A DNA stretch of 64,000 bases, taken from the NCBI GenBank assembly GCA_902384455.1, contig CABMCB010000059.1, positions 35,938 through 99,937 on the forward strand. The letters run 5' to 3'. The first letter of the stretch is position 1, and every line of letters begins with the position of its first letter. The position numbers and the translations under genes are program-made. Below are positions 13,211 through 56,038 of the stretch, in pieces. This stretch comes from an uncultured archaeon (lineage in GTDB: Archaea > Altiarchaeota > Altiarchaeia > IMC4 > SCGC-AAA252-I15). Below the pieces are notes generated by a model. The model had not been told where the DNA came from and made no database searches. It was given only the letters and a program-made list of their open reading frames with translations.

Positions 13211-13240
13211 GAAAAAGCCCCACTCGTCTGAGTGAGGCTG
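13211..13240 (-). terminator. Intrinsic terminator at end of RNA island
   Basis: AGCCTCACTC-AGAC-GAGTGGGGCT followed by TTTT on minus strand. Confidence 0.7.
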
Positions 13241-13244
13241 AAAT

Positions 13245-13365
13245 TGGTACGAACTAGTTGCGATGAGAACGCCGTGTATGCTCGGTAGCTCAACGTACGT
13301 GGGCCGCTCCTAGGGTTCGCTCCCGGGTCTCTCCGCGAGACGTGGCGGCACAACTATTCCTTCAT
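13245..13365 (-). ncRNA. Unknown CCA-ended structured RNA
   Basis: Terminal helix ATGAA..TAGTTGTG / CGCAACTA.TTCGT then ACCA; internal hairpins GTCTC/GAGAC and GCCGC/GCGGC; no T or anticodon arm. Confidence 0.45.
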
Positions 13366-13372
13366 GAAATTT

Positions 13373-13450
13373 TGGTCGGAGAAGAAAGATTTGAACTTTC
13401 GTTCTCTGCTTTCCGAAAGCAGCGGGAACTCCAGGCTTCCCCATTCCCCG
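13373..13450 (-). tRNA. tRNA-Pro(CGG)
   Basis: Cloverleaf, CTGCT-TTCGGAA-AGCAG, encoded CCA. Confidence 0.88.
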
Positions 13451-13457
13451 ACTGGTG

Positions 13458-13757
13458 TTACGACAAATTTTTTGTAATCTTCGGCATCAGCGCGGACTGC
13501 TTGAATCTCTGTCCGCCAAAAGAAACGATGTTCATGTCCGGGGTCGGGTCGCTTGCGCCCCAGTTGAAGATGACCACTTCGTGCTGCTTGGCCTTGTCCA
13601 AGAGTTCCGCGAAATCCGCCGGATGAATGTATGTCACTTCACCAGGTAGACCATAGCCTCGGTGAAGCTGAGCAATCACTGCTCTTGCTTCATCGAGTTC
13701 TTTTTTGTACCAGGTCAGTTCTGCTTCTGCTGCCTGGGCCATGCGGACAAGACTCAT
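13458..13757 (-). CDS. Hypothetical protein in tRNA island
   Basis: Start MSLVRMAQ with AAGGA RBS. Confidence 0.55.
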   Translation of the reverse strand: MSLVRMAQAAEAELTWYKKELDEARAVIAQLHRGYGLPGEVTYIHPADFAELLDKAKQHEVVIFNWGASDPTPDMNIVSFGGQRFKQSALMPKITKNLS

Positions 13758-13774
13758 ATTGGTCCTTTTGAAAA

Positions 13775-13848
13775 TGGTCGAGAATGCTGGAATCGAACCA
13801 ACCCCACATGCTCCCAAAGCACGCGTGCGGCCACAACACTTATTCTCG
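13775..13848 (-). tRNA. tRNA-Pro(TGG)
   Basis: CGTGC-TTTGGGA-GCATG, GTTCGATTC, CCA. Confidence 0.88.
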
Positions 13849-13855
13849 ACTAAAC

Positions 13856-14272
13856 TTACGGCAAAATCTTTTTCTCAATCGCTGCAACCGTGATTGCGCG
13901 ATAGTGGTCACCGGATGCGGCCTTCGCACCGTGGTCCGGCTGAATCCATTCCAACCAGCGGTTCATCGCTCTGCCCCACAGATGACCCTTCAGCTTTGCG
14001 CGATACGCGTGTGCTGAAATTGTTTCACCGGGCATGCCGTTGAACGCGAGCACGTTGATGAACTGGTCAAACGCCACTAGCACTCTGTGCAAGTATGACT
14101 CACGCGATGCACGCTGCTCGGCGTGTGCTTCGTCTTCTGCTGTGAATGGCTTCTCAATGTCGAAGTGTCCTTCGACGGCGGCGCGGATAGATGTCATCAC
14201 CAAACCCATTGCAACTAAACCAGCAATAGAACCTGCGATTATCTTTCCTGCTAGAAGCAATCCGTGTAGCAT
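13856..14272 (-). CDS. Membrane-anchored hypothetical protein
   Basis: 138 aa; N-terminal TM, DQFINV..NGMPGETIS motif. Confidence 0.6.
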   Translation of the reverse strand: MLHGLLLAGKIIAGSIAGLVAMGLVMTSIRAAVEGHFDIEKPFTAEDEAHAEQRASRESYLHRVLVAFDQFINVLAFNGMPGETISAHAYRAKLKGHLWGRAMNRWLEWIQPDHGAKAASGDHYRAITVAAIEKKILP

Positions 14273-14286
14273 TGTTCTCCAAAATT

Positions 14287-14361
14287 TGGTTCGGGCGGCA
14301 CGACTCGAACGTGCATTAACTGGGTCAGAGCCAGTGTTCCTGCCAATTGAAAGACATCCGA
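14287..14361 (-). tRNA. tRNA-Gln(CTG)
   Basis: ACTGG-CTCTGAC-CCAGT, CCA. Confidence 0.88.
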
Positions 14362-14431
14362 ACAGGGCCTACAATTCCGGGCCTTACATCAGGTTCTGAG
14401 GCCTAATGCCTGGAAATCTAGGCTTAAAGCT

Positions 14432-14506
14432 TGGTTGGGGCGAGTGGACTCGAACCACTATTAGAAGTTTCAAAGACTTCCTTCCTGCCAATTGAAAGAC
14501 ATCCCA
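14432..14506 (-). tRNA. tRNA-Gln(TTG)
   Basis: GAAGT-CTTTGAA-ACTTC, CCA. Confidence 0.88.
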
Positions 14507-14514
14507 ACGGAAAT

Positions 14515-14730
14515 TTACGGGAGCGGCGACTTCTGTAGATACATCGCCAAACCCAGTATAGCCGACGCGGCGGAGCCGATTGCGGCCATGATGAGAACAT
14601 TATGAATGCCAACACCGGGTCGTAGGTTAAAACTCTGTGGCGCGATTCCTATCGCGGAGAAAGCGTTAATGACACCGCCTGCTGCTCCGCTAATCATCGC
14701 TGCCAACAGTCCCTTGGACCAGGGCTTCAT
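14515..14730 (-). CDS. Small two-TM membrane protein
   Basis: 71 aa hydrophobic, AGGAG RBS. Confidence 0.6.
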   Translation of the reverse strand: MKPWSKGLLAAMISGAAGGVINAFSAIGIAPQSFNLRPGVGIHNVLIMAAIGSAASAILGLAMYLQKSPLP

Positions 14731-14744
14731 AGTGCTCCTAAAAT

Positions 14745-14818
14745 TGGACCGCCCGAGTGGAGTCGAACCACTGGTGCCTCTTTTGCAGAGAGGTAGCTTG
14801 CCGTTTGCCGACGAGCGG
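14745..14818 (-). tRNA. tRNA-Cys(GCA)
   Basis: CCTCT-CTGCAAA-AGAGG, U73, CCA. Confidence 0.88.
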
Positions 14819-14819
14819 T

Positions 14820-14906
14820 TGGCGGATGATGAAGGAATCGAACCCTCTCTACCTTTCAGTAGGCACAGTTTTCAAGACTGCTAGCCCCCATGGACTGCAA
14901 TCATCC
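14820..14906 (-). tRNA. tRNA-Ser(TGA)
   Basis: GCAGT-CTTGAAA-ACTGT, long variable arm, G73, CCA. Confidence 0.85.
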
Positions 14907-14915
14907 GTAAAATTT

Positions 14916-15003
14916 TGGCGGAAGGTAAGTGAATCGAACACTTACAACCTTTCGGTTGACTTAGGTTTAGCAAACCTATACGTTGCCTTTCCGTCAACCT
15001 TCC
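14916..15003 (-). tRNA. tRNA-Ser(GCT)
   Basis: TAGGT-TTGCTAA-ACCTA, long variable arm, CCA. Confidence 0.88.
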
Positions 15004-15006
15004 GCG

Positions 15007-15324
15007 TTACTTCTTGTCTGCGCCGCACTCACCCATCATCACCGTCTTGATTACGTGGTGATTGGCGCAACGAACTACACATTTAGCAATTTCAGCAAGA
15101 ACCGTTTCCCACTTCCGACTTGAACCTGCCGCAATCTTGAACGACTTCGTGCTCGGGTCTACGTGGTCAAACTCCAAGGCAGCTGGATGCCAAACTGTTC
15201 CGGGTGCGCAATCCACGCAACCGCTGGATAGTTTGATGGCATCGACCTTGGCGCGAAACTCAACATACTTCCTGGCCTGATATGACCGTTGTTGTTTCCG
15301 CGATTCTTCTGTTCTGATTCTCAT
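15007..15324 (-). CDS. HNH endonuclease
   Basis: CVDC...ALEFDHVD...EIAKCVVRCANHH. Confidence 0.8.
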   Translation of the reverse strand: MRIRTEESRKQQRSYQARKYVEFRAKVDAIKLSSGCVDCAPGTVWHPAALEFDHVDPSTKSFKIAAGSSRKWETVLAEIAKCVVRCANHHVIKTVMMGECGADKK

Positions 15325-15330
15325 AAATAT

Positions 15331-15616
15331 ATTAGTGAGCGTTAGCCTGGATTCTGTATTCCGGAATACGGAATGACTATCATCCATCTTCGCCTGCTAC
15401 CCGACCTTCATCACGCTCAACCAGCGCTCCGGTCCTATTTGCAGTTGCACCGATGTGGAGTGCCCAGTCTTGAATTAACTACGCTGGCCTTACCCGTACT
15501 CTCGCGAGTCCCGCAACTTCCACGGCATCGAGTTGAGATGTGTCCAGAACTTCCTCGGTCGCGTCGGCAAAGGCCGAAACTTTATAGCGCGGACCGCGAT
15601 AGTCTAGCTCACTAAT
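15331..15616 (-). ncRNA. rnpB: RNase P RNA, reduced form
   Basis: P1 ATTAGTGAGC/GCTCACTAAT; P2 GACTATC/GATAGTC; GAGGAAGTTCTGGA pairs with ACAGAATCCAGGCT forming P4 with bulged U; P6-like CTCAAC/GTTGAG; GCAA..CAAATAG and AGATGGATGA conserved segments. Confidence 0.88.
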
Positions 15617-15935
15617 CTAGTTTAACGTAACCGATGATACACAAAACCGCGACGAATGTCAACATAGAAATTGCGCCTGCGACAATCATCACATCGCCCG
15701 GGCTGTAAAGCCATCCCCGGAAACTGATGTAGTCCGCCAGGTATTTCAGGCTGGCGTCTGATGACATCGTGCAATGGGTCATGTTCGTGACCTGAAACGG
15801 CCAGTCCCATCTGCCGTGATATGCGACCGGCATGAACCCGCCGTTGGCCCACATCACTAGTTTGTTCATCAAGCCGCCGCCGATATAAGAGCCGAGGCCT
15901 GCGAGCGCCCACTTCAAAAAACTTTTGCGCTTCAT
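15612..15935 (-). CDS. DUF5317-like membrane protein
   Basis: ANGGFMPV...LKYLADYI...YSPGDVMI. Confidence 0.65.
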   Translation of the reverse strand: MKRKSFLKWALAGLGSYIGGGLMNKLVMWANGGFMPVAYHGRWDWPFQVTNMTHCTMSSDASLKYLADYISFRGWLYSPGDVMIVAGAISMLTFVAVLCIIGYVKLD

Positions 15936-16699
15936 GACGCCGCTTCGGCCTTCGACACATCCGCTCGGATGTGACTGATAGGCACCGCGATTGTCGGTGT
16001 GGTCGTTCCATCGTAACCGCCGATGACCAACCCGATAATTCTGTGCGTCTTTTCGCTTACGATTGCGCTGCCGGATGCGCCGTGCGAATCAAACTGCTGC
16101 ACGAGCATCATGCCGTGAACCGCTGAGCCAGCCGGAGCGATAACGCTCGCGACACTGCCTCTCGTCATCTGCTTCGTCATCTTCTCACCGAGTGAGAAAT
16201 TGACATCCACAGTTGCGTCACCAACGGCGACATCTGATTCGTCGCCCAGTTCGATGACTGGAATCTTCGCGTCGGTCTTCATGTAGTAGACCGCGTAGTC
16301 TTGGTACTCGACGCCGTCTTCATTCGGCTCAATCACTTCGGCCTTCAGAAGCTTCACGGGCGTCTTCTCCGTGCCGACGTTGTCGGACACCGAGTAAACC
16401 AAACCCTTCGGCAAATCTTCCGGATTGCCCTCGGCGGTGCAGTGCCCTGCACCAATCAATTCGTAACCGCCAGCGACCTTCTTGAACGCGGTGACCGTGC
16501 ACAAGAAGTGCGTCACGTCGTGGTCGTTCTTGATTACGCCGTCGTCCGTCTCTATTTCCGCGCCAGCAGGCAGCGTACCATAGAGCGCCATGCTCGCTTG
16601 GTAAACTTTACCGTCGAAGCCGCGAGGTGTCTTCACATCCGCGAACGCCGACGAACAAACCAAAATCAAAGCCGCTACGAGAGAGAAAATCTTTCTCAT
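15932..16699 (-). CDS. Secreted trypsin-like serine protease
   Basis: Signal peptide; GAGHC (His), QDYA (Asp), HGASGS (Ser). Confidence 0.8.
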   Translation of the reverse strand: MRKIFSLVAALILVCSSAFADVKTPRGFDGKVYQASMALYGTLPAGAEIETDDGVIKNDHDVTHFLCTVTAFKKVAGGYELIGAGHCTAEGNPEDLPKGLVYSVSDNVGTEKTPVKLLKAEVIEPNEDGVEYQDYAVYYMKTDAKIPVIELGDESDVAVGDATVDVNFSLGEKMTKQMTRGSVASVIAPAGSAVHGMMLVQQFDSHGASGSAIVSEKTHRIIGLVIGGYDGTTTPTIAVPISHIRADVSKAEAAS

Positions 16700-16704
16700 C
16701 TACA

Positions 16705-16791
16705 TTTGCCCGTCAGACACGCCTTGGCAGAGCACCGGTGTCAGACATGCGCCGTTCCAATTGGACCCTCTGCTCGGCGAACATCAGCAAA
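16705..16791 (-). ncRNA. Unknown structured RNA
   Basis: Nested pairings TTTGCT/GGCAAA, CGCC/GGCG, GCAGAG/CTCTGC. Confidence 0.3.
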
Positions 16792-16806
16792 TCAGCTATT
16801 AAGTTT

Positions 16807-16881
16807 TGGACGACCCGTCGGGACTTGAACCCGAATCCTCGGTTTAGGAAACCGTAACTCTTTCCATTGAGCTACAGGTCG
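16807..16881 (-). tRNA. tRNA-Arg(CCT)
   Basis: CGGT-TTCCTAA-ACCG, CCA. Confidence 0.88.
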
Positions 16882-16882
16882 T

Positions 16883-16957
16883 TGGTAGGCCGTGGAGGAA
16901 TCGAACCTCCATTCAGCGCTTAGAAGGCGCTAGTCCTGTCCGTTGAACGAACAGCCC
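16883..16957 (-). tRNA. tRNA-Arg(TCT)
   Basis: AGCGC-CTTCTAA-GCGCT, CCA. Confidence 0.9.
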
Positions 16958-16964
16958 ACAGAAA

Positions 16965-17044
16965 AGTTGCCGACCGCCTTGTCCGTCTGGCTCCACAGGT
17001 TTTCAAGACCCGTGCCGGGAGTCGAACCCGGTTTTGTCGGACTT
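16965..17044 (-). ncRNA. Circularly permuted tRNA mimic A (YrlA-like architecture)
   Basis: CCGAC - T arm CCGGG-TTCGACT-CCCGG - closed 7-bp acceptor CACGGGT-CTTGAAA-ACCTGTG - GA - D arm GCC-AGACGGACAA-GGC - G - GTCGG. Confidence 0.75.
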
Positions 17045-17102
17045 GTCGGGCGCGTGGCTGGCCGTGTCACAGCCCTTTGGACTCGCGTTATCCGACTGAA
17101 AT

Positions 17103-17176
17103 TGGCAGGACGCGTAGGAATTGAACCCACTCCGTTCGGGTTGGAGCCGAACATGCTACCGTAACACTTGCGACCT
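17103..17176 (-). tRNA. tRNA-Trp(CCA)
   Basis: TTCGG-CTCCAAC-CCGAA, CCA. Confidence 0.88.
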
Positions 17177-17226
17177 GTAGTGCTCAAGAGCACACTGGGT
17201 GAGTTAGTGTGCCCTTGAGGTAAGAC

Positions 17227-17302
17227 TGGAGCGTGATACCAGATTCGAACTGGTGCGTACTGGGTGGAAGCCAGTCATGCTAGCCGCTAACATCAATCGC
17301 GC
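17227..17302 (-). tRNA. tRNA-Gly(TCC)
   Basis: ACTGG-CTTCCAC-CCAGT, U73, CCA. Confidence 0.88.
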
Positions 17303-17311
17303 TCGAAACTA

Positions 17312-17581
17312 TTAAACTGTTGGTGCCGGAGCAAGTGCTGCTACGACGGTTGCATCTACCGCGTCAACTGCTGCTGCGTCTGCCGCGTCCTTCGCTGCTA
17401 CTGCTGCTGCTACAGCGGTCGGGCCATTTTCAGCAATCAACTTAGCGATGTCTGCTTGCAACTTTGCCATGCTGTCTGCGAATGCCATCATTTCTCTCCG
17501 TAGTGCGTGAAGTAACAACCTGTCTTGATGCGATAGTTCGACTACTAACTTCGGGTTAGGTGATTGGGCTTTTCCAAACAT
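17312..17581 (-). CDS. Ala-rich hypothetical protein
   Basis: ORF between Gly tRNAs; alternative internal start MMAFADS with GGAG RBS. Confidence 0.5.
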   Translation of the reverse strand: MFGKAQSPNPKLVVELSHQDRLLLHALRREMMAFADSMAKLQADIAKLIAENGPTAVAAAVAAKDAADAAAVDAVDATVVAALAPAPTV

Positions 17582-17603
17582 TCGAACCTCGCTTTCAATT
17601 TTT

Positions 17604-17677
17604 TGGAGCGACGTACCAGAATCGAACTGGTGCCCGAACCTTGGCAAGGTTCTGTTCTACCACTATACCAACATCGC
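17604..17677 (-). tRNA. tRNA-Gly(GCC)
   Basis: GAACC-TTGCCAA-GGTTC, CCA. Confidence 0.9.
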
Positions 17678-17680
17678 TCG

Positions 17681-18022
17681 TTACAAACCTCTGAACATCA
17701 CCATGGCCTTTTCGTGGAGCACCAACTGCTCTGGTGTCATCTGGCCCACAACCTTGCGGAAGCGGCCCATCTTTCTGTTCACGTTCGGCCTGGTCGGGAT
17801 GGTCGTCCTTACTGCTAGAGGACCGTCACCGTTCTGTTGCTCAACGAACTGTCTCGCCTGTGCTTCAGAACTAAATCTCTTCTCAACAATTTCTCCGGTG
17901 TTGTTGTCCAACTTCGTCGCGGAGTGTCCGAGCCAGTTCCACTTGTCTCCGTGGTTGCGCTCGTGCGGCAATCTTTTGCGGTCTTCATTTTCATGCTTCG
18001 GACGTTCGATTCGCATAGTCAC
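17681..18022 (-). CDS. Hypothetical protein
   Basis: 113 aa ORF filling gap between tRNAs. Confidence 0.55.
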   Translation of the reverse strand: MTMRIERPKHENEDRKRLPHERNHGDKWNWLGHSATKLDNNTGEIVEKRFSSEAQARQFVEQQNGDGPLAVRTTIPTRPNVNRKMGRFRKVVGQMTPEQLVLHEKAMVMFRGL

Positions 18023-18029
18023 CTTAAAA

Positions 18030-18103
18030 TGGTACCCGTGGTCGGAATCGAACCGACGCTACGTCCGTGAGAGGGACGCGTTCTACCACTAGACTACATG
18101 GGC
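18030..18103 (-). tRNA. tRNA-Glu(CTC)
   Basis: CGTCC-CTCTCAC-GGACG, CCA. Confidence 0.88.
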
Positions 18104-18111
18104 ACAGAAAA

Positions 18112-18186
18112 TGGCGGAGATAGCGGGAATCGAACCCGCACTTTGCCCGTGACAGGGGCATGTCGTTACCAACTGACCCTATCTCC
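18112..18186 (-). tRNA. tRNA-Asp(GTC)
   Basis: TGCCC-CTGTCAC-GGGCA, G73, CCA. Confidence 0.88.
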
Positions 18187-18193
18187 GCGAAAC

Positions 18194-18267
18194 TGGAGCT
18201 TCGTAAAGGAATTGAACCTTTACCTCATCCTTACCAAGGATGCGTTCTGCCGTTGAACTAACAAAGC
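18194..18267 (-). tRNA. tRNA-Thr(GGT)
   Basis: CATCC-TTGGTAA-GGATG, CCA. Confidence 0.9.
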
Positions 18268-18277
18268 GTAAAACTTA

Positions 18278-18356
18278 TCCGGTGTGCTACCGTTACACTA
18301 TAGCAACGAGCGGCTTTACCCGTTCCCGCCTGTGGGATTCGAACCCCTCTACCGGA
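18278..18356 (-). ncRNA. Circularly permuted tRNA mimic B
   Basis: TCCGGT - T arm GGG-TTCGAAT-CCC - imperfect closed stem - TA-GTGT-AACGGTA-GCAC D arm - ACCGGA. Confidence 0.65.
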
Positions 18357-18360
18357 AGAT

Positions 18361-18434
18361 TGGAGCACCGTCGTGGAATCGAACCACGGCTTCTGCGCTA
18401 CGAGGGCAGCTTCATGCCACTAGAACAACAGTGC
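18361..18434 (-). tRNA. tRNA-Thr(CGT)
   Basis: CTGC(C)-CTCGTAG-(C)GCAG with C31:C39 mismatch, CCA. Confidence 0.8.
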
Positions 18435-18442
18435 AAAACTTT

Positions 18443-18548
18443 TGGAGGAAGTCCCTCTCACTTGGCCCATCCGGCGCAGGGCACCCCGAAGGGCTGGAGG
18501 TCCGCTTTCGACTGTGAAGAAGAAGCGTACTTACCGTTGAAGACTTCC
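18443..18548 (-). ncRNA. Unknown CCA-ended structured RNA
   Basis: Terminal helix GGAAGTCTT/GGGACTTCC then TCCA; internal hairpins CGCTT/AAGCG, CCC-TTCG-GGG, GCCC/GGGC. Confidence 0.5.
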
Positions 18549-18570
18549 TTCGCCTTGCGGCGAGTAATCA

Positions 18571-18646
18571 TGGAGCACATCGCTGGATTCGAACCAACGT
18601 GTCGAAGGTACAAGCTTCGCATACTAGACCGCTGTATGAGACGTGC
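18571..18646 (-). tRNA. tRNA-Thr(TGT)
   Basis: CGAAG-CTTGTAC-CTTCG, CCA. Confidence 0.85.
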
Positions 18647-18652
18647 TCGATA

Positions 18653-18728
18653 TGGCGTATCCCCTAGGATTTGAACCTAGGACCCTTCGGTTAACAGCCG
18701 AATGCTCTGGCCGCTGAGCTAGGGATAC
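18653..18728 (-). tRNA. tRNA-Asn(GTT)
   Basis: TTCGG-CTGTTAA-CCGAA, G1:C72, CCA. Confidence 0.9.
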
Positions 18729-18733
18729 AAAGA

Positions 18734-18821
18734 TGGCTGGAGCAGCAGGACTCGAACCTGCAATGTGCTTTCGCACTGCCTGGGTAACAGCCAGGTGCTG
18801 TACCAATTGAGCCACACTCCA
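18734..18821 (-). tRNA. tRNA-Asn(GTT) with long variable arm
   Basis: CCTGG-CTGTTAC-CCAGG, variable hairpin GTGC-GAAA-GCAC, U1:A72, G73, CCA. Confidence 0.8.
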
Positions 18822-18831
18822 GTAGAAATTT

Positions 18832-18906
18832 TGGAGCACCCACTCGGAATCGAACCGAGATAGTCAGTTTCGAAGACTGATGCCCTATCCGTTGGACGAC
18901 AGGTGC
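18832..18906 (-). tRNA. tRNA-Arg(TCG)
   Basis: TCAGT-CTTCGAA-ACTGA, CCA. Confidence 0.88.
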
Positions 18907-19223
18907 TCGTGTGTTCTGATGCGATGACAATTTGCACAAACGACATCGCATTTCGAAATTTCTTCCAGTAACTTCTCCATTGAGGAGTTGTGATAGCCGC
19001 TGGAAATGTTGAACTTCTTTACTCCGCGAACATGGTCAAAATCCATGCACACAGATGGGAACTTGTTCCCGCAATCAGCACACGCGACGTTCTTAGCTGG
19101 CTCGATTATCTCCGCGTACAGTCTTTCTTTCCGTTTCGCGGATTTGTCGATGTAATACTGCTTGTGGTTTTTGTAATGCCTTCGGCCACAAGCTTTAGCC
19201 AGTTCTGAATTAGCGTACGCCAT
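18885..19223 (-). CDS. HNH endonuclease
   Basis: CADCG...CMDFDHVRG...EISKCDVVCANCHRIRT. Confidence 0.85.
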   Translation of the reverse strand: MAYANSELAKACGRRHYKNHKQYYIDKSAKRKERLYAEIIEPAKNVACADCGNKFPSVCMDFDHVRGVKKFNISSGYHNSSMEKLLEEISKCDVVCANCHRIRTHEHLSSNG

Positions 19224-19227
19224 AAAT

Positions 19228-19304
19228 TGGTAGACCGTGGTGGATTTGAACCAACCATTATAGCCTTCGCAGGGCTATGTCCTATCCAGTTGAACGAACA
19301 GTCC
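19228..19304 (-). tRNA. tRNA-Arg(GCG)
   Basis: TAGCC-CTGCGAA-GGCTA, CCA. Confidence 0.82.
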
Positions 19305-19342
19305 ACATTAAATCGTACTTTCGAAAATTTGTCAAGAACTAT

Positions 19343-20017
19343 TTAGTTCAGTACTTCAACAACTGCGGTTCTCATCTGGATAGATGAAAGCGCTGAGCCG
19401 GTCACAGCCTGCAACAGCAGGTTGTTCGTGCTCGCTGCGGTCAAGTTAACCGCTATGCCAGCCGCTACGTTGGTGTCCTGATACTCTGACATCGGAGCGG
19501 TTGCTGAAGCACCAATCAAGATTGCCAAAGCGCCGTGTCCTTCAAGCGTACCGGATGCACCGGTTGAAACTGTGTAAATGTGGCCTTCGAAGTTCCATGG
19601 GAAGTTCGTTTGTGAGGCCGTTGTCGCTTGGCTCGTCGCGGTCAAAACCGTCTGAGTGAAAGCGCCAGAGAAACCTAGCTGAATACCAATCGTCGGCGTC
19701 TGTGCGCCAGCCGTGGTGTAAATGCCCCACATGCGTACGCGAAGAACCTTTCCGGCGACGTTCATGAACGCGGTCGGTAGCGCCAATGTGGCGAACGTTC
19801 CCGTGCCGTTCAATGCCGTCAGTGCAGCCGGAGCCGCGTTGTAAACAATCGCTGCGCCGCCTAGAGCGTAGTTCAAACCGTTCCAGAAGTACTTGCCCGA
19901 CTTCTGCGTCGTATCGTACCAGTAATCTCCGTCAATCGGAGAAGCCGGTGCAACACCGGACGGAATGTTCAAGGGCGCTGCTGCCGCTGTTGAGTTCGGC
20001 AATGTGAGAAATGACAT
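19343..20017 (-). CDS. Putative virion structural protein
   Basis: 224 aa, PSGVAPASPIDGDYWYD fibre-like motif, Ala/Thr/Gly-rich; GAGGAG RBS. Confidence 0.55.
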   Translation of the reverse strand: MSFLTLPNSTAAAAPLNIPSGVAPASPIDGDYWYDTTQKSGKYFWNGLNYALGGAAIVYNAAPAALTALNGTGTFATLALPTAFMNVAGKVLRVRMWGIYTTAGAQTPTIGIQLGFSGAFTQTVLTATSQATTASQTNFPWNFEGHIYTVSTGASGTLEGHGALAILIGASATAPMSEYQDTNVAAGIAVNLTAASTNNLLLQAVTGSALSSIQMRTAVVEVLN

Positions 20018-20100
20018 TTCTCCTCTCTTCGGCTACGCGCCGATATCACTGATGATGCAACTTGTACAAGATGAAAAGACTGATTGCTACACCAAGGACG

Positions 20101-20346
20101 TTACACACTGTTCGGGTCACTGCCAGCGCTAGGTCCAGTCTTTGGTGGTTCATTCTTCTCTTCTTTGCGCTTGGTCCGTTGCTCGTACCATTTGCGCCGT
20201 AAATCCAGATATTCCTTCTGCGCCGCGAGACTTTCCTGACTAACTTTCAGGCTCTCTTCAGCCATGCGCTTCATTGCGTGGTCGTCGATGTAGATTGCGA
20301 CCAGGATGAATATTTCTAAGACAAGAAGTGCATCCTGCCAAGTCAT
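20101..20346 (-). CDS. Single-TM hypothetical protein
   Basis: MTWQDALLVLEIFILVAIYI followed by coiled coil. Confidence 0.55.
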   Translation of the reverse strand: MTWQDALLVLEIFILVAIYIDDHAMKRMAEESLKVSQESLAAQKEYLDLRRKWYEQRTKRKEEKNEPPKTGPSAGSDPNSV

Positions 20347-20361
20347 AGTCACCTTCAAAAT

Positions 20362-20437
20362 TGGTACCCAGTGAGTGAATCGAACACTCCCCACCTCTTT
20401 GTAGGAGAGGCGCATACGACCAGTTTGCTAACCGGGT
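20362..20437 (-). tRNA. tRNA-Val(TAC), C33 variant
   Basis: CCTCT-CCTACAA-AGAGG, A73, CCA. Confidence 0.8.
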
Positions 20438-20745
20438 AATGCCTTAGCGATTTGTTGTTTCTTGATTCTCGCGTAAGGACGAATCTTTTTCAAAAACTCT
20501 CTTGCATTTCTGTTTGACACTATCCATCGCCAAACCTTTTTGTTGGTTCGTTTATCAGATGTGTGAATAGTGCCGAACTTAAAAAGGCGTTGAACGAACT
20601 TCAAAACTTTCACGTCTGTGTTCGTTATCGTTGCAATCGTTCGAAAATAATACTTGCCGTTCTTCGTTGCCTGATATTTCGCGAAACGGCAATGGCCTTC
20701 ACCATCGAACAACCCACTCACATAAGCTAAGTCGATTTTTCTCAC
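20428..20745 (-). CDS. LAGLIDADG homing endonuclease
   Basis: LAYVSGLFDGEG; FLKKIRPY..IKKQQ. Confidence 0.85.
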   Translation of the reverse strand: MRKIDLAYVSGLFDGEGHCRFAKYQATKNGKYYFRTIATITNTDVKVLKFVQRLFKFGTIHTSDKRTNKKVWRWIVSNRNAREFLKKIRPYARIKKQQIAKALPG

Positions 20746-20764
20746 TTAGTGCCTTTCGTAAACT

Positions 20765-20838
20765 TGGTGGACCGCCGGAGAGTCGAACTCCGTCTTGATG
20801 CGTGCAAGGCAACCGTATTCCCGTCCTACTCGCAGCCC
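20765..20838 (-). tRNA. tRNA-Ala(TGC)
   Basis: G3:U70, loop CTTGCAC, A73, CCA. Confidence 0.82.
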
Positions 20839-20846
20839 ACATAAAT

Positions 20847-20920
20847 TGGTTGCGGATGTCGGAGTCGAGCCGACCAGCAGTGCTTATGAGACACCGTACC
20901 TCACCCGAGGTGTACCCGCA
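20847..20920 (-). tRNA. tRNA-Met(CAT), divergent
   Basis: GGTGT-CTCATAA-GCACT; T loop CTCGACT; atypical D arm; CCA. Confidence 0.75.
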
Positions 20921-20929
20921 AAAGAAAAT

Positions 20930-21005
20930 TGGTAGCGTCGGCGGGATTCGAACCCGCGTGAGGACCTTGAAAGGGTCCCATCCTAGGCCACTAGATGACA
21001 TCGCC
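20930..21005 (-). tRNA. tRNA-Glu(TTC)
   Basis: GGACC-CTTTCAA-GGTCC, CCA. Confidence 0.9.
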
Positions 21006-21118
21006 ACAAAAGAAGCTAGAGCATGGCTTCTTTACAACTTCAGCTTACGCAAGGCTCCCGGCTGAAGCGCCCATACAGCGGGTGTTTACCGAGTAAACAA
21101 CCCACATATGGGTTAAAT

Positions 21119-21203
21119 TGGTACCCCGTGAGAGATTTGAACTCCCATGGCTGTTAACCGACGCGTTCTAAGCGCGTTGTGTCTGCCGTTCCACCAACAG
21201 GGC
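21119..21203 (-). tRNA. tRNA-Leu(TAG)
   Basis: ACGCG-CTTAGAA-CGCGT, long variable arm, CCA. Confidence 0.88.
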
Positions 21204-21214
21204 ACTGAAACTTA

Positions 21215-21274
21215 TGGAGCGGTCACTACCTGTGTGACAGGCACCTCCCCGGGCACTGCCCGGGAGCACCGCTC
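21215..21274 (-). ncRNA. Unknown CCA-ended two-hairpin RNA
   Basis: GAGCGGT/ACCGCTC closing TCCCGGG/CCCGGGG and TGCCTGT/ACAGGTA; ends TCCA. Confidence 0.45.
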
Positions 21275-21276
21275 GC

Positions 21277-21459
21277 TTACTTACGCATGTCTCGCACATG
21301 CTGGTAATATGAAAGCTGGTCCACCGGACGGTCGTGGTCATGACGACGGTCTTCGATGTCCGCGCTCATCGGATAATCTTTCGGGACTTGAAATCCCTTT
21401 GACGTATCCTTCGCGTCTCCGACAACTTTCATGCCTAGCTTCGGCTTATCGTCGGGCAT
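21277..21459 (-). CDS. Small hypothetical protein
   Basis: 60 aa, GAGGT RBS. Confidence 0.55.
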   Translation of the reverse strand: MPDDKPKLGMKVVGDAKDTSKGFQVPKDYPMSADIEDRRHDHDRPVDQLSYYQHVRDMRK

Positions 21460-21471
21460 ATTACCTCAAAC

Positions 21472-21546
21472 TGGTAGTCTCTCTGTGACTCGAACACAGG
21501 TCTCTCGCTAATCAGGCAAGCATCCTAGCCGCTGGACGAAAAGACT
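21472..21546 (-). tRNA. tRNA-Ile(GAT), U37 variant
   Basis: CTTGC-CTGATTA-GCGAG, CCA. Confidence 0.82.
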
Positions 21547-21554
21547 ACTGAAAT

Positions 21555-21645
21555 TGGTGGATGCGGAATGATTCGAACATTCTATGTGCCACAAGGACAT
21601 CCTGTTTTACAGACAGGTACGACCCGCCGTCTTCGCCGCACATCC
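21555..21645 (-). tRNA. tRNA-Tyr(GTA)
   Basis: CCTGT-CTGTAAA-ACAGG, long variable arm, A73, CCA. Confidence 0.85.
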
Positions 21646-21656
21646 ACTGAAACTAA

Positions 21657-21743
21657 GGGAACCCACGGGTCACTCACCCGCGCCAATCACGGGTCCGGTA
21701 CCGGATATCCGTAATCGTTCAATCTACCTCGAACTGCGTTCCC
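21657..21743 (-). ncRNA. Unknown four-way-junction RNA
   Basis: GGGAAC/GTTCCC closing GTTCGA/TTGAAC, GATTACGG/CCGTGATT and CGCGGGT/ACCCGTG. Confidence 0.45.
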
Positions 21744-21751
21744 ACGAAACT

Positions 21752-21827
21752 TGGTGGGTCGCCAGCGACTTGAACGCTGAACTTGCTCCTTAAAAGGGAG
21801 AAATGTTGCCGCTAACACCTGCAACCC
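21752..21827 (-). tRNA. tRNA-Lys(TTT)
   Basis: CTCC-CTTTTAA-GGAG, CCA. Confidence 0.85.
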
Positions 21828-21860
21828 ACGATAATCGGTAACGTTCTACCGATTGAAACT

Positions 21861-21935
21861 TGGTGGACTACCAGGGATTCGAACCCTGACCAAACTCGTT
21901 AAGAGCGAGCTATGCAACCGTAACACCTGTGGTCC
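21861..21935 (-). tRNA. tRNA-Lys(CTT)
   Basis: GCTCG-CTCTTAA-CGAGT, CCA. Confidence 0.88.
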
Positions 21936-22083
21936 ACTGAAAAATCTGACAGCTTGTTGTCATGGAACGGACTTTAATCGGAGTTCTACCGATGCTGTCT
22001 ACGCCGTCTCACGTTGTATCCCCGCGTGAAGACTGTGTTCACGCCTCATGTTAAGCGACGACACTGTCTCGTCGCGGGAAGAT

Positions 22084-22172
22084 TGGTACTCGATGAAGGA
22101 ATCGGACCTTCGTGCAAGCGTAATCTACGCCGACTCGTTATAAGCGAGTGCCGCAAACCATCGCAATCGAGT
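22084..22172 (-). tRNA. Atypical tRNA with TAT anticodon and long variable arm
   Basis: Acceptor ACTCGAT/ATCGAGT, D arm GCGA-TGGT-TTGC, ACTCG-CTTATAA-CGAGT, variable hairpin GCGTA/TACGC, T loop TCCGATT, ACCA. Confidence 0.75.
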
Positions 22173-22178
22173 AAAAAG

Positions 22179-22287
22179 TTGTCCGGAGCGTACGCTTTCG
22201 GCGTCTCACCCGCCATCACGAATGCCGCGTCAACGGCACTGACTTCCCCTCGTTAGACTCGGTTGACGCCGGTCGCGAGTCGGACAA
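22179..22287 (-). ncRNA. Unknown structured RNA
   Basis: TTGTCCG/CGGACAA terminal helix, inner GCGTCAAC/GTTGACGC. Confidence 0.4.
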
Positions 22288-22289
22288 AT

Positions 22290-22368
22290 TGGTGCGCCGC
22301 GTGAGATTCGAACTCACATGTGGTCACGTTTTAAGTGTGCCGCGTATGCCGCATTCCGCCAGCAGCGC
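22290..22368 (-). tRNA. tRNA-Leu(TAA) lacking long variable arm
   Basis: Leu-type D arm GGCGGAATGCGGCATACGC, loop CTTAAAA, ~6-nt variable region, A73, CCA. Confidence 0.75.
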
Positions 22369-22595
22369 TAAACTCTTGTGCTCGTCGCGGAAGCTAGCGT
22401 ATCGCTGGTTCCGGGCTGATACGCAACCGTACCTGAAGCACAAACATCGCTAGGGTCAACAACCCATTGCTTCCATGCCAGCCGGGTTGCAACCCGTAGG
22501 CACTTCAGATGTGGACTTCTACCACGCGAAAACTTATGAGACAGCCCTGGCCGAAGCCACTCCGGGTAATACCTTAGTCTTACGTCTCAAACTTT

Positions 22596-22656
22596 TTCGG
22601 TGTGCCCACTACACTACTTCTGGCTAGGCCAGCACGGAGTCGAACCGTCTACCGAA
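22596..22656 (-). ncRNA. Circularly permuted tRNA mimic C
   Basis: TTCGGT - ACGG-TTCGACT-CCGT - CTGGC-CTA-GCCAG - TA-GTGT-AGTGG-GCAC - ACCGAA. Confidence 0.7.
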
Positions 22657-22659
22657 TCT

Positions 22660-22746
22660 TGGTCGCCCACACAGGACTCGAACCTGTACGCTTTTCACGG
22701 CACCGGGTTTTGAATCCGGCATGTCTGCCAGTTCCATCAGCAGGCG
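22660..22746 (-). tRNA. tRNA-Leu(CAA)
   Basis: Loop TTCAAAA, long variable arm, CCA. Confidence 0.88.
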
Positions 22747-22805
22747 AAATTCTCCCGGCAAAGGCCGGGAAGGGGTGGTTACCTCAGCGCTAAGCGCTCC
22801 TAAAT

Positions 22806-22879
22806 TGGTCCCTGCTGTTTGAATCGAACAAACACGACCGGCTTTTCAGACCGGGATGCGACCACTACATCAAACAGGG
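22806..22879 (-). tRNA. tRNA-Phe(GAA)
   Basis: CCGGT-CTGAAAA-GCCGG, CCA. Confidence 0.88.
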
Positions 22880-22880
22880 T

Positions 22881-22955
22881 TGGGGCGAACGTCGGGATTC
22901 GAACCCGAACCGGCGGATTCACAGTCCACCGTGCTGCCGTTACACTACACACGCC
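22881..22955 (-). tRNA. tRNA-His(GTG)
   Basis: GTGGA-CTGTGAA-TCCGC, G-1:C73, CCA. Confidence 0.9.
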
Positions 22956-23997: not shown

Positions 23998-24497
23998 TAT
24001 GAACCAAAGTGCTTTCGGGTGTCAAGACCCAAATGCTTGAACGCGGCGACGACTTTTTCGCGGAACTCGTCAAACTCTTCCCGGCGGATGCGCGGGTTGC
24101 TGATGTCGAGCGCGGCCAGGAATCCTAGTTCGCTCGCGGCCTGCTCGACCAGGGTGTCGAGAACCTTCTGGCCCTCGGGAGTGTCAAAAATTGTCACATC
24201 GCCGGTTTGCGCTGCGCGGGATGCGCTCGCGGTCGCCGGAGTGAGAAATGGGTTGGGATTGCCCATCGTGTCGGTCTCGGACTTCATGTCGAAGCCTTCG
24301 TGCTTCTGCAGAATGGAGAGGATGGCCTCGGCGTCGGGCTTGGCCGGACTGTATCCGGGGCCTTTATCGAAATCGGTCTGAGATTCGGTCTCAGCGGCCT
24401 TAACTTCTGCGGCTTCAAGTTTTTGGCGCTCGAATGCCTGTCCCGCCGTCTCAGGGACGCGGTTGACTATCGTTTCGGTGCTCATTGTGTCCTTCAC
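23997..24497 (-). CDS. Hypothetical protein
   Basis: 166 aa; probable start MSTETIV with AAGGA RBS. Confidence 0.55.
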   Translation of the reverse strand: MKDTMSTETIVNRVPETAGQAFERQKLEAAEVKAAETESQTDFDKGPGYSPAKPDAEAILSILQKHEGFDMKSETDTMGNPNPFLTPATASASRAAQTGDVTIFDTPEGQKVLDTLVEQAASELGFLAALDISNPRIRREEFDEFREKVVAAFKHLGLDTRKHFGS

Positions 24498-25134
24498 GCT
24501 TCAGCCGAATCAATTCCAAGGCCGGAGCGATTGTGTTCATTTCTTCAAACGTAAATTCTAGCCTACCGCGTAACTCCATGCACCGGATACAAGCCGGAAC
24601 TGAGTTGTATGCTGTAACTACCATCCCTTCGATAAAATCCAGGGATGTTCCTTTCTTGTCCAGGACGGAGCCGCAATAATGGCACTCGTCTTCAGATAGC
24701 AATCCTTCGTAAAAATTGATACTCCATAGGGGGTCAGTCTCCGGCACCCTATGATTTCTCATAACGTCCCTTAGGACGGCATGCTTTGCTCCGAGGCTCC
24801 CGGTTTTCGTTCCGGATAGCTTTTCCCGGGTTCTGATTCTTTTAGCTTTGTCCCGCTCAACCTGTATCGCTTCGTTTCGACGAGTAAGGCGCTCGATGCG
24901 CTCCTCGCGCTGTCGGTCGTTGTTCTCCCTTTGAAGACACCCGCAGCTTTTCTTCCGGCCTAGGAGTAGCTTATCCTCCCGAGCCTCTGTCTCATTCCCG
25001 CAGTCACAAGATGCGACCCAGACTCTTCTTCCCTTCTCAGAATGAGAAAAGTTCTCAATAGTGAGACGTGAGAATTTCATACCCGGCTCTATGGTGAGAC
25101 GGGGGGTCTGATTTGATACCCGGTTAGGTGTCAC
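24451..25134 (-). CDS. HNH-type homing endonuclease-like protein
   Basis: FSRLTI...CDCGN...KSCGC N-terminal module plus CHYCG...SLD...NSVPACIRC. Confidence 0.7.
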   Translation of the reverse strand: MTPNRVSNQTPRLTIEPGMKFSRLTIENFSHSEKGRRVWVASCDCGNETEAREDKLLLGRKKSCGCLQRENNDRQREERIERLTRRNEAIQVERDKAKRIRTREKLSGTKTGSLGAKHAVLRDVMRNHRVPETDPLWSINFYEGLLSEDECHYCGSVLDKKGTSLDFIEGMVVTAYNSVPACIRCMELRGRLEFTFEEMNTIAPALELIRLKREGHNEHRNDSQPRP

Positions 25135-30652: not shown

Positions 30653-31105
30653 ATGTTTGGGGCATCTTATGACCCTATGGACGCGCGGACTCGACTGCTA
30701 AAGGCAGCATTCAATCTAACACCCGGAGACTGGGACGCTATAGACGCGTATCAGTCCCGGGTATGCTTTATTTGCGGCAGGAAGCCCCCAGGACGACGAT
30801 TGGCGACCGACCACTGTCACACGTCAGGATTGGTCAGAGGGCTGCTCTGCAACCGCTGTAACGCGTGGCTAGGTAAGATAGAGAACAACTTCAAGCGGTA
30901 CGGCATCCACAAGACCGGCGTGCCTCTGCTGACGGCGCTCTCCCGCGTGCTCAAGTATCTCAGCAATCCCCCGGCGACTCAGGCGTTAGGCCGAGAGGTC
31001 TATGGATACCCGGGACGCGTCGGCACCAAGGCGTTCAGAAAGTGGGCAAAGAAAAAGGCCGTTATGATACAAAGGACTGATGATGGTAGACACTCCAAAT
31101 CCTAA
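30653..31105 (+). CDS. Recombination endonuclease VII-like protein
   Basis: CFICG...LATDHCHTSGLVRGLLCNRCN. Confidence 0.85.
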   Translation: MFGASYDPMDARTRLLKAAFNLTPGDWDAIDAYQSRVCFICGRKPPGRRLATDHCHTSGLVRGLLCNRCNAWLGKIENNFKRYGIHKTGVPLLTALSRVLKYLSNPPATQALGREVYGYPGRVGTKAFRKWAKKKAVMIQRTDDGRHSKS

Positions 31106-55357: not shown

Positions 55358-56038
55358 GTGTCATTACTCATCGGAGTCAAAAGCTGTCAGAGAGACCGCA
55401 CCGAAGGCTTCCACCAAGCAATACGGGAAACCTGGGGTCGCGGTCTTTCCAATTTACGATTCTTTTTCGGCGGAGCACCCATGGGAGTTTCCACCGACGA
55501 AGTTCTGCTGAACTGCAAGGACGACTACGAAAGCCTGCCGTACAAAACGAAGGCGATGCTTGAGTGGTTTCTGAACTGCACAACCGAGCAGTTCATTTTC
55601 CTTTGCGACAACGACACGTACGTGAACTACCGGAAGCTGTCCGAACTGCCGTACGCGAAGTACGACTACAGCGGCAAGTCTTCTCTCTGGCCCCCGAACT
55701 CCAAGCTAGGCGTTACGTTTCAGTACAAGGACGGACGCGGCAACACGATTGAAAACTGTCACCCATGGGCGTCAGGCGGCTACGGATATTTTCTTTCACG
55801 CAAGGCGGCGGAGATTATCGTCACGTCCGGCGAGCCTACGTCGTGGGCTGAAGACCTGTGGGTCGGCCAAGTCCTAGGCCCTAGAATGGACATCCTGAAA
55901 TACGACTATCCCGAGTATCACAACAACGTCACCTGGCACTGGTGGAAGCCGGTCGGCGGCAAGATTACACCGTATGAATTGCTGGAAGTCTACCGCAACG
56001 GCGGCGTTCCACAGGGCAAGAAATGGTACATGCGATGA
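55358..56038 (+). CDS. Glycosyltransferase, GT31-like
   Basis: AIRETW, DDYESLPYKT, CDNDTYV, ASGGYGYFLSR, EDLWVG. Confidence 0.8.
   Translation: MSLLIGVKSCQRDRTEGFHQAIRETWGRGLSNLRFFFGGAPMGVSTDEVLLNCKDDYESLPYKTKAMLEWFLNCTTEQFIFLCDNDTYVNYRKLSELPYAKYDYSGKSSLWPPNSKLGVTFQYKDGRGNTIENCHPWASGGYGYFLSRKAAEIIVTSGEPTSWAEDLWVGQVLGPRMDILKYDYPEYHNNVTWHWWKPVGGKITPYELLEVYRNGGVPQGKKWYMR

Follow-up and report, generated by a model that had tools for sequence, protein, structure and literature searches.

The window analyzed here, the final 64 kb of contig C59 (99,937 bp), carries on its minus strand, at positions 15327–15616, a 290-nucleotide (nt) gene for a reduced RNase P RNA derived from the bacterial type A. 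The gene was recognized with the Rfam model RF00010 (bacterial RNase P class A) and with a profile of its own family, and it is embedded in an array of transfer RNA (tRNA) genes on a phage genome. Judging from sequence, this RNA is likely to work as a catalytic subunit of RNase P that the phage itself encodes, and to belong to a widespread phage family whose genes are embedded in tRNA arrays. The feature is real and selected, and represents a known ribozyme in an unexpected carrier.

A sensitive scan of positions 15000–16000 aligned the RNA with RF00010 from end to end (model positions 1–367) at 79.8 bits and an E-value of 2.6e-24, which confirms the RNase P RNA gene that an initial annotation, made from the letters of the window alone, had placed here. 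The gathering threshold of RF00010 is 100 bits, and the locus was found only in E-value mode; at gathering thresholds, Rfam returned 27 tRNAs from the window and no RNase P. With the nhmmer profile of the family, the RNA scores 216.5 bits. The gene end at 15331 given earlier corresponds to the final base of P1, and the Rfam alignment adds four unpaired nt, which brings the end to 15327. Two large deletions interrupt the alignment with RF00010: only 20 nt stand in for the 90 model positions between the strands of P11, and nothing stands in for the 24 that make up P18. P18, previously described as reduced to a few bases, is thus wholly absent.

The elements reported at first as intact, namely P1, P2, P3, P4 with its bulged U, the P6 pseudoknot, P15–P17 with GGU, and P19, are all present, both in the Rfam alignment and on reading the sequence. 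The coordinates that follow all refer to the minus strand. The 5' strand of P1 (15606–15616) pairs with 15331–15342, giving 10 base pairs (bp) plus one, perfect in the window RNA; P2 comprises 7 bp, P3 is extended, and P5 is present. P4 consists of 8 bp plus the bulged U, and its 5' strand, which lies in conserved region I (CR I, GAGGAAGUUCUGGA; 15543–15556), pairs with 15344–15351, within the segment that combines the joining region J2/4 with the 3' strand of P4 (CR V, ACAGAAUCCAGGCUA; 15343–15357). The 5' strand of P6, CAAC in J5/7 (15532–15535), pairs with GUUG in L17 (15418–15421). P15, P16, and P17 occupy 15394–15444 together with the CCA-binding loop L15, CGGGU, whose GGU lies at 15399–15401. 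The stretch from the 3' end of P15 into J18/2 (CR IV, GAAGAUGGAUGA; 15382–15393) contains no P18, and P19, as read from the sequence, is a 6-bp hairpin, AUUCCG/CGGAAU, at 15358–15374.

The conservation of these elements was evaluated in an alignment of 18 distinct sequences, comprising the window RNA, a second RNA of this kind on contig C38, and 16 of 19 homologues from IMG/VR (L063, L056, and L012 were dropped as duplicates). Five blocks are invariant in it: GAGGAA of CR I; GCAA of J5/15 (columns G169, C170, A171, and A172); CGGGU of L15 (C214, G215, G216, G217, and T218); the J18/2 block of CR IV (G229, A230, G232, A234, T235, and G236); and ACA-AA of J2/4 (ACAGAA), within a CR V whose invariant columns are A260, C261, A262, A264, A265, C267, C268, and G270. 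In type-A RNAs, these blocks are linked to catalysis and substrate positioning.

The same alignment reveals extensive covariation. The structure scored was explicit and included both pseudoknots. Standard pairs fill 90.8% of its cells vs 74.7 ± 0.7 in shuffled alignments, none of 500 shuffles reaching the observed value; the covariation score is 0.459, compared with 0.155 in shuffles; changes on both sides occur at 47 of the 75 pairs; and controls in which the partner was slid are only 33–41% paired. P4 is 99.3% paired and covaries at four of its eight pairs, one of which occurs as C-G (8 sequences), A-U (6), and U-A (4). Similarly, all four pairs of P6 covary (95.8% paired), and P9, P11, P15, and P17 each covary at 4–5 pairs. 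The paired fractions reach 100% for P9, 97.1% for P11, 100% for P15, 95.8% for P16, and 95.1% for P17. The columns of P1 are badly aligned in the family alignment, and their value of 55.6% paired is to be read in that light. By these computations, the catalytic domain, with P1–P5, both pseudoknots, CR I, CR IV, CR V, GCAA of J5/15, and the GGU of L15, is complete and its structure strongly selected.

Between these catalytic elements lies a reduced specificity domain (S-domain; 15451–15530), in which the Rfam alignment identifies P7, P8, P9 with a GNRA loop (GCGA), P10 (GGG/UCC), and P11 with a 16-nt terminal loop. P12, P13, P14, and the J11/12 junction are missing. P11 (GGCCAG/CUGGGC, 5 bp with a G.G mismatch) and its loop, which runs from GUA to AUUCAAG and contains the T-loop-like UUCAA, occupy 15462–15489, the site at which relatives carry P12. 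The initial annotation had proposed that most of the S-domain was lost, which is overstated, given that about half of it is retained (P7 to P11). It had also taken a 28-nt string for the entire region where P10–P14 should lie; this string, 15462–15489, is P11 with its loop and not the whole region. The alignment to the covariance model that it suggested for mapping missing helices does show P12–P14 to be absent, while P10 and P11 are present.

The carrier is a phage, as had been proposed from the outset. The first and last 127 nt of C59 are identical, which closes the contig circularly into a 99.8-kb phage genome, and its genes include an SU10-like portal, the large terminase (TerL), a family-A DNA polymerase, an exonuclease, a prim-pol (primase), a UvrD-like helicase, a ribonucleotide reductase, a dNMP kinase, and endonuclease VII, in addition to a protein with a PG_binding_3 lysin domain (1.3e-10) and a GroES homologue (PF00166, 5.7e-20). 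The contig is a member of a 2.41-Mb bin of 103 contigs, 91.9% complete. This bin is archaeal: its contig C2 carries the end of an archaeal 23S rRNA (95.2 bits) and an archaeal RNase P RNA (RF00373, 71.6 bits). The lysin domain, the GroES homologue, and a near-consensus sigma-70 promoter upstream of the RNA, described below, indicate a bacterial host, and C59 is therefore read as a bacterial-host phage that was mis-binned in an archaeal metagenome-assembled genome (MAG).

The assignment to this bin nevertheless invites another explanation, according to which the RNA serves the binned archaeon as its own RNase P, or C59 is a virus of that archaeon whose RNA uses archaeal RNase P proteins. The contig does belong to a largely complete archaeal MAG of similar GC content, and the loss of P13, P14, and P18 fits the pattern of archaeal type-A RNase P RNAs, which have lost these helices. 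However, the archaeon has an RNase P RNA of its own on C2, and the window RNA obtains 40 bits with the archaeal model RF00373 (threshold 84) vs 79.8 with the bacterial one. Furthermore, a closed phage genome that encodes a peptidoglycan-binding lysin domain and a GroES homologue does not suit an archaeal origin, and neither does the distribution of encoded CCA ends, found in 34 of 34 tRNAs on C59 vs 12 of 42 in the remainder of the bin. We regard an archaeal origin as scarcely credible.

Several further observations concern the bin and the phage genome. The archaeal RNase P RNA (C2:1–561) scores under the gathering threshold of 84 bits of RF00373, begins 127 nt past the 3' end of the 23S rRNA, and has an almost deleted P15–P16 region, in which 34 model positions are reduced to 2 nt. 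The MAG holds three phage-like contigs with tRNA arrays, C4 (25 tRNAs), C38 (30), and C59 (34); C38 and C59 share segments that are 69–89% identical, and C4 and C59 have no DNA in common. All three are likely cases of mis-binning, which would distort tRNA counts and quality checks based on non-coding RNAs. The nearest cultured relative by TerL, the Acidobacteriota phage Tunturiibacter phage Tunturi_3, is only 25.5% identical in this protein and has no RF00010 match, and it was rejected both as an indicator of the host and as a model of the RNA. Additionally, a sugar-nucleotide cluster on the plus strand (55358–63885) encodes three glycosyltransferases, a polysaccharide-biosynthesis protein, a GDP-mannose 4,6-dehydratase, and an epimerase; such a pathway may serve in the modification of DNA or of surface glycans.

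The RNA is conserved in relatives, whose existence the initial annotation had made a test of its proposal. Contig C38 carries, in the interval from tRNA-Lys to tRNA-Cys, a type-A RNA of 338 nt that scores 95 bits and whose P7/P8 stretch is identical to that of the window RNA; this stretch was the source of a 16-mer query; the array contig C4 yielded no RNase P RNA with either Rfam or the family profile. Searching IMG/VR with this 16-mer returned 59 loci, which the nhmmer profile divided into 19 true homologues and 40 chance matches, and all 19 homologues sit in dense tRNA arrays, with 6–32 tRNAs per locus. A core pattern independent of P8 gave 25 loci, 15 of them known and 10 new. The new loci include three array-embedded reduced RNAs, among them L069 (263 nt, 131.8 bits), which brings the IMG/VR homologues to 22 loci, all beside tRNAs. 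The other seven were rejected: three are ordinary full-size bacterial RNAs (229–328 bits, 0–1 tRNA nearby) in host-like DNA within viral contigs, and four contain no RNase P.

Metagenomes were queried with a 38-nt pattern spanning P8, P9, and P10, with 25 fixed bases. It identified 79 contigs, every one of which matches the family profile, 68 of them over the full length; tRNAs lie close to all 79 loci, three or more of them in 78 cases. After the removal of duplicates, 62 unique RNAs remain, 267–383 nt long (median 309.5), and the scores of family members on RF00010 range from 72 to 131.8 bits. Nine viral records searched over their whole length contain exactly one RF00010 match each. Four of the viral records (G001, G003, G006, and G008; 118.8, 105.1, 70.8, and 101.7 kb) have direct terminal repeats and a CheckV completeness of 100%, a fifth CheckV-complete record is linear in IMG/VR and rated 99–100%, and three further records with the RNA are 97–99% complete.

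Other collections did not extend the family. No match to the window RNA or the L069 RNA was found by blastn among 50,697 GenBank phage records. In a genome collection, the 16-mer produced, among the at least 120 loci listed, no family member and no locus with three or more tRNAs; these matches are due to chance and hence offer no clue to the host. The Microcystis phage MaAM05 (MW495066.1, 111–120 kb) was rejected as a phage example, given that its full-size RNA of 251.8 bits lies among fabI, engB, mtgA, and glyS in what looks like bacterial chromosomal DNA.

These relatives also bear on the idea that the RNA is a decaying passenger, that is, a fragment of a host rnpB captured together with tRNA genes and drifting toward loss. 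Its size, smaller than that of cellular type-A RNAs, and its score under the Rfam threshold would agree with decay, as would the abundance of homing endonucleases and rearrangements in the array. Nevertheless, compensatory changes preserve the fold across 62 unique sequences, and the covariation largely refutes this explanation. Complete phage genomes retain exactly one copy each, and the host-like full-size RNAs found in viral contigs are of a different kind, scoring 229–328 bits and having no tRNA array. Decay is accordingly the kind of account to which we give almost no weight.

An analogous RNA occurs in cultured phages. The Microbacterium phages A3Wally, Zooman, and Big4 and one further record contain an unannotated RNA of about 221 nt that matches the full span of RF00010 at 72 bits (E 1.7e-20); the records are MZ150783.1 (93852–94072; locus L281:3817–4037), OK040793.1, ON637770.1, and the further one, from genomes of about 192–195 kb. 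In these phages of Microbacterium foliorum, the RNA exactly occupies the space left between neighboring tRNA genes in an array rich in HNH genes. Little of its S-domain survives, with 140 model positions reduced to about 55 nt, P18 is missing, the GGGU of L15 is kept, and no rnpA was found in the 194.7-kb genome. It therefore resembles the window RNA in lying within a tRNA array studded with HNH genes, in the lack of P18, in L15, and in the absence of rnpA. In contrast, these phages are unrelated to C59, have an Actinobacteria host and genomes of about 193 kb, and carry a far more reduced S-domain; blastn detects no similarity between the two RNAs. These comparisons point to the Microbacterium phages as a second, unrelated lineage with the same solution. 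That at least two unrelated phage groups, the uncultured ones of about 70–119 kb and the Microbacterium phages of about 193 kb, independently acquired and miniaturized a bacterial RNase P RNA within tRNA arrays is a possibility that we take seriously without leaning toward it.

Across the family, the S-domain follows a common layout. P11 (consensus GGCUUCG/CGAAGGC, with a G.G or C.A mismatch that is kept) leads to GUA, then to a P12 hairpin of variable size, and then to AUUCGAG, AUUCAAG, or AUUGGAG. This T-loop-like motif at the tip of P11 (AUUCRAG/AUUGGAG) is present in 59 of the 62 members, two others being unparsed and one lacking it. The segment from P10 to P10' spans 36–123 nt and P12 varies from 0 to about 80 nt; no member has P13 or P14, nor any room for them other than in a long single P12 region. 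Eight of the 62 unique RNAs, including the window RNA, share a 41-nt form without P12. Their lineages are only 66–80% identical overall, their loop is conserved, and their P11 shows compensatory changes (GGCCAG/CUGGGC, GGCCGA/UCGGGC, and GGCCCA/UGGGGA), which together argue that the loss of P12 is maintained and does not represent decay. Elsewhere in the RNA, 3 of 21 members retain a hairpin of the P18 type, which has a GNRA loop in two cases, and 13 of 21 have P19.

In cellular RNase P, CR II and CR III form two interdigitated T-loops. According to a published account, these dock the elbow of the tRNA (PMC4919913). In the phage family, the pentamer UUCRA/UUGGA matches the U...A pattern of a T-loop, and the J11/12 side is cut to GUA. 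The single remaining T-loop-like candidate may still dock the tRNA elbow.

The presumed substrates are the tRNAs of the array (13373–22954, minus strand), which comprises 34 tRNAs called by ARAGORN plus one more at 20768–20838. All are on the minus strand, some of them only 1 nt apart. All encode their 3'-CCA (34 of 34 on C59), as do 30 of 30 tRNAs on C38 and 24 of 25 on C4, and this end matches the invariant GGU of L15. A canonical T-loop, GTTCRANYC, is present in 33 of the 34, the exception being tRNA-Met, and tRNA-His encodes G-1 and C73. Even at an E-value of 0.1, Rfam misses five of the ARAGORN tRNAs (Val-tac, Met-cat, Tyr-gta, Lys-ttt, and Ile-tat); by their sequences, some phage tRNAs are divergent, though not in the elbow.

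The array offers some additional observations. The 35th tRNA (20768–20838, minus strand), not called by ARAGORN, was found by Rfam at 39.6 bits, with its CCA end at 20765. A unit of about 80 nt (approximately 13245–13325, minus strand), which neither ARAGORN nor Rfam calls a tRNA, has a long-range acceptor-like stem and ends in ACCA; it follows the last tRNA and precedes a terminator-like hairpin (13216–13239, minus strand). In most tRNAs of the three arrays (window, C38, and C4), the bases 3' of the encoded CCA are biased toward A or G followed by TTT (CCA-ATTT, CCA-AGTTT), which may be a signal for 3' processing or a feature of the spacers. HNH and LAGLIDADG homing endonucleases are dispersed in the array, and nucleases of the homing type (HNH, LAGLIDADG, and endonuclease VII) lie in and around it at 15007–15387, 18885–19223, 20428–20745, 24451–25134, and 30653–31105. 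The array of the Microbacterium phage shows the same HNH-interspersed pattern.

The tRNAs and the S-domain must be considered together, since the initial annotation suggested that the ribozyme might recognize only the acceptor helix and CCA. Such an elbow-independent minimal ribozyme would handle divergent tRNAs as well as CCA-ended hairpins that are not tRNAs. The absence of P12, P13, P14, and J11/12 speaks for this reading, as do the CCA encoded by all tRNAs together with an invariant GGU, the five tRNAs too divergent for Rfam, the one CCA-ended non-tRNA hairpin with its end at 13245, and the still smaller 221-nt version in Microbacterium phages, with almost no S-domain. The part that concerns CCA is consistent with our results; as for CCA-ended RNAs other than tRNAs, a single candidate was seen. 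On the other hand, P7–P11 are retained, with P8–P11 strongly conserved or covarying, and the T-loop-like motif persists in 59 of 62 members, including P12-less lineages as dissimilar as described above, which argues for a selected function of the S-domain. With 33 of 34 T-loops canonical, there is no reason on the substrate side to drop recognition of the elbow, and the proposed fit between elbow-independent recognition and divergent tRNAs is not supported. We therefore consider an elbow-independent ribozyme unlikely, although it is the alternative to which we would give the most room.

Within the array, the RNase P RNA occupies a gap of 1.8 kb, after a trypsin-like open reading frame (ORF) and a DUF5317-like ORF. 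The latter (15612–15935, minus strand; PF17248, 4.7e-11) overlaps the first bases of P1 with its stop codon. At the 3' end, the RNA is abutted by an HNH homing-endonuclease ORF (15007–15324, minus strand; phrog_2255, 1.3e-21), with an in-frame ATG at 15324, 3 nt past the RNA and without overlap; the longest form of this ORF starts from 15387. A sigma-70-like promoter, TTGACA-17-TATCAT (15634–15662, minus strand), matches the consensus at 11 of 12 positions and lies upstream of the RNA, with about 17 nt between the end of the -10 hexamer and the RNA 5' end. It is a consensus match only, in a region not enriched for such matches (11 vs 7.4 ± 2.8 in shuffles). Approximately 7 of 18 family members (L045, L023, L027, L030, L026, L032, and C38) carry a motif of the type AACGAAA/AACATAG 12–25 nt upstream of the RNA 5' end, which could be a promoter or a processing element; it is missing upstream of the window copy, where the sigma-70-like promoter stands.

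The protein subunit of bacterial RNase P has no recognizable gene on the phage. As had been noted from the sequence, no rnpA-like gene is visible: a six-frame search of the entire bin, the closed phage contig included, gave no match to PF00825 (RnpA) at E ≤ 1, and no rnpA was found in the five related viral records tested. Without an rnpA in the phage, the RNA must compete for the host protein, which lends some plausibility to a role as a non-catalytic decoy or regulator that sequesters host RnpA or binds pre-tRNA and thereby shuts down or redirects host tRNA maturation. A reduced S-domain might likewise lower activity. A protein sponge, however, would require only the surface that binds RnpA, whereas the elements of catalysis and positioning (the bulged U of P4, GAGGAA, J18/2, ACAGAA, GCAA, and GGU) are invariant in the 18 sequences, and the position in tRNA arrays at all loci examined points to the processing of tRNAs. 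A decoy thus appears highly improbable.

Certain points weigh against a catalytic phage RNase P RNA, and we bring them together here. The score of 79.8 bits is under the curated RF00010 threshold of 100. The minimum free energy fold barely beats shuffled sequences (z = -1.76; 12 of 200 shuffles are as good) and misses the RNase P core; because thermodynamic folding alone is weak evidence, the RNase P call rests on the covariance model and the covariation. The shuffle control for covariation ignores the relatedness of the sequences, and the structure was derived from the same sequences, yet double-sided changes are still numerous. P8 and P10 never vary, P8 being partly fixed by the search pattern, and they are consequently uninformative either way. 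The module that docks the elbow lacks its second T-loop (CR II), and efficiency or substrate range may differ from those of cellular enzymes. Finally, the partnership with RnpA is purely a deduction, with no protein cofactor identified in the phage.

Taking these points into account, we still favor a functional, phage-encoded catalytic subunit of RNase P, for which the following course can be proposed. Transcription of the RNA would take place in the tRNA operon or next to it, perhaps starting at a sigma-70-type promoter of its own, and the RNA would assemble with the RnpA of the bacterial host, which we propose as its partner because the phage encodes none. The complex could then cleave the 5' leaders of the 35 pre-tRNAs of the phage, which are tightly spaced, with substrate docking probably achieved through L15–CCA pairing and a simplified elbow contact formed by the P9–P11 stack and the single T-loop-like UUCRA motif. 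In this way, the phage would gain its own capacity for tRNA maturation during infection.

If viruses do carry RNase P ribozymes of their own, acquired independently in at least two phage groups, the tRNA supply of these phages would be independent of the host RNase P RNA, for instance when host RNA is shut off or degraded, or when tRNA-targeting immunity forces the mass output of replacement tRNAs. The reduced S-domains would then also constitute a series of natural experiments on the minimal specificity domain, in which one T-loop, or possibly no elbow dock at all, may suffice. With a P12 of anywhere between 0 and about 80 nt, with P18 and P19 either present or absent, and with lengths of 267–383 nt, or 221 nt in the Microbacterium phages, the family forms a natural deletion series that bears on how small an S-domain can be and still recognize the tRNA elbow.

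RNase P RNA is regarded as a universal cellular housekeeping ribozyme, and phages are already known to carry translation-related functions such as tRNAs, tmRNA, and ribosomal proteins. An RNase P RNA that is borne by a virus, covaries, and is evidently under selection lengthens this list, and raises the questions of why host RNase P would be limiting or unsuitable in infection and whose protein subunit is used. There are also practical consequences, given that phage RNase P RNAs are sub-threshold in Rfam and unannotated in GenBank phage records. The presence of an RNase P RNA serves as a marker of genome completeness, as one genome study describes (PMC8172020), and phage copies can mislead checks of MAG completeness or contamination, as in the archaeal bin examined here. 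Regarding precedent, full-text searches of an incomplete body of literature turned up no publication in which a phage or other virus encodes an RNase P RNA, and an earlier report elsewhere is possible; in a 2026 survey covering 298 archaeal and 337 bacterial RNAs, the main text contains neither of the terms phage and virus (PMC12974513).

Among known RNase P RNAs, the window RNA shares most with bacterial type A (RF00010), as represented by the M1 RNA of E. coli and the RNA of T. maritima. The elements in common are P1–P11, P15–P17, and P19, the P4 and P6 pseudoknots, CR I, CR IV, and CR V, GCAA in J5/15, the GGU of L15 for the 3'-CCA, and a GNRA loop on P9. Unlike these RNAs, it measures 290 nt, compared with a model of 367 positions, and lacks P12, P13, P14, and P18; the P18 hairpin whose GNRA loop docks on P8, a trait of type A, is therefore absent. 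Its CR II junction is replaced by GUA, leaving one T-loop-like pentamer, and it is borne by a phage, in a tRNA array, in a genome without rnpA and with a score under the gathering threshold. The RNase P RNA of Mycoplasma fermentans, for comparison, has a type-B architecture and belongs to a cellular genome. It is similar to the window RNA in being bacterial, in lacking P12 (PMC8172020), and in its small size.

The architecturally closest published cases, compared by their description, are the RNase P RNAs of two Candidate Phyla Radiation (CPR) genomes, which lack P12, P13, P14, and P18 and were found only at sub-threshold Infernal scores (Lui et al. 2021, PMC8172020). The same source considers the loss of P13, P14, and P18 not uncommon and that of P12 highly unusual, naming M. 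fermentans and the Thermoproteaceae. As described there, the CPR RNAs have no CCA-binding motif and are the sole RNase P RNA of the cell, whereas the phage RNA keeps the GGU and represents an additional, virus-borne copy. Type T of the Thermoproteaceae, to which the initial annotation likened the window RNA, is likewise a natural RNase P RNA of reduced size whose specificity domain is truncated; as cited from Lai et al. 2010, it lacks P11, J11/12, J12/11, and P12, which together make up nearly the whole S-domain (PMC7191817, PMC12974513). The analogy does not extend beyond this general likeness, since type T, in these accounts, is archaeal and devoid of P11, and the window RNA is of the bacterial type and retains P7 through P11.

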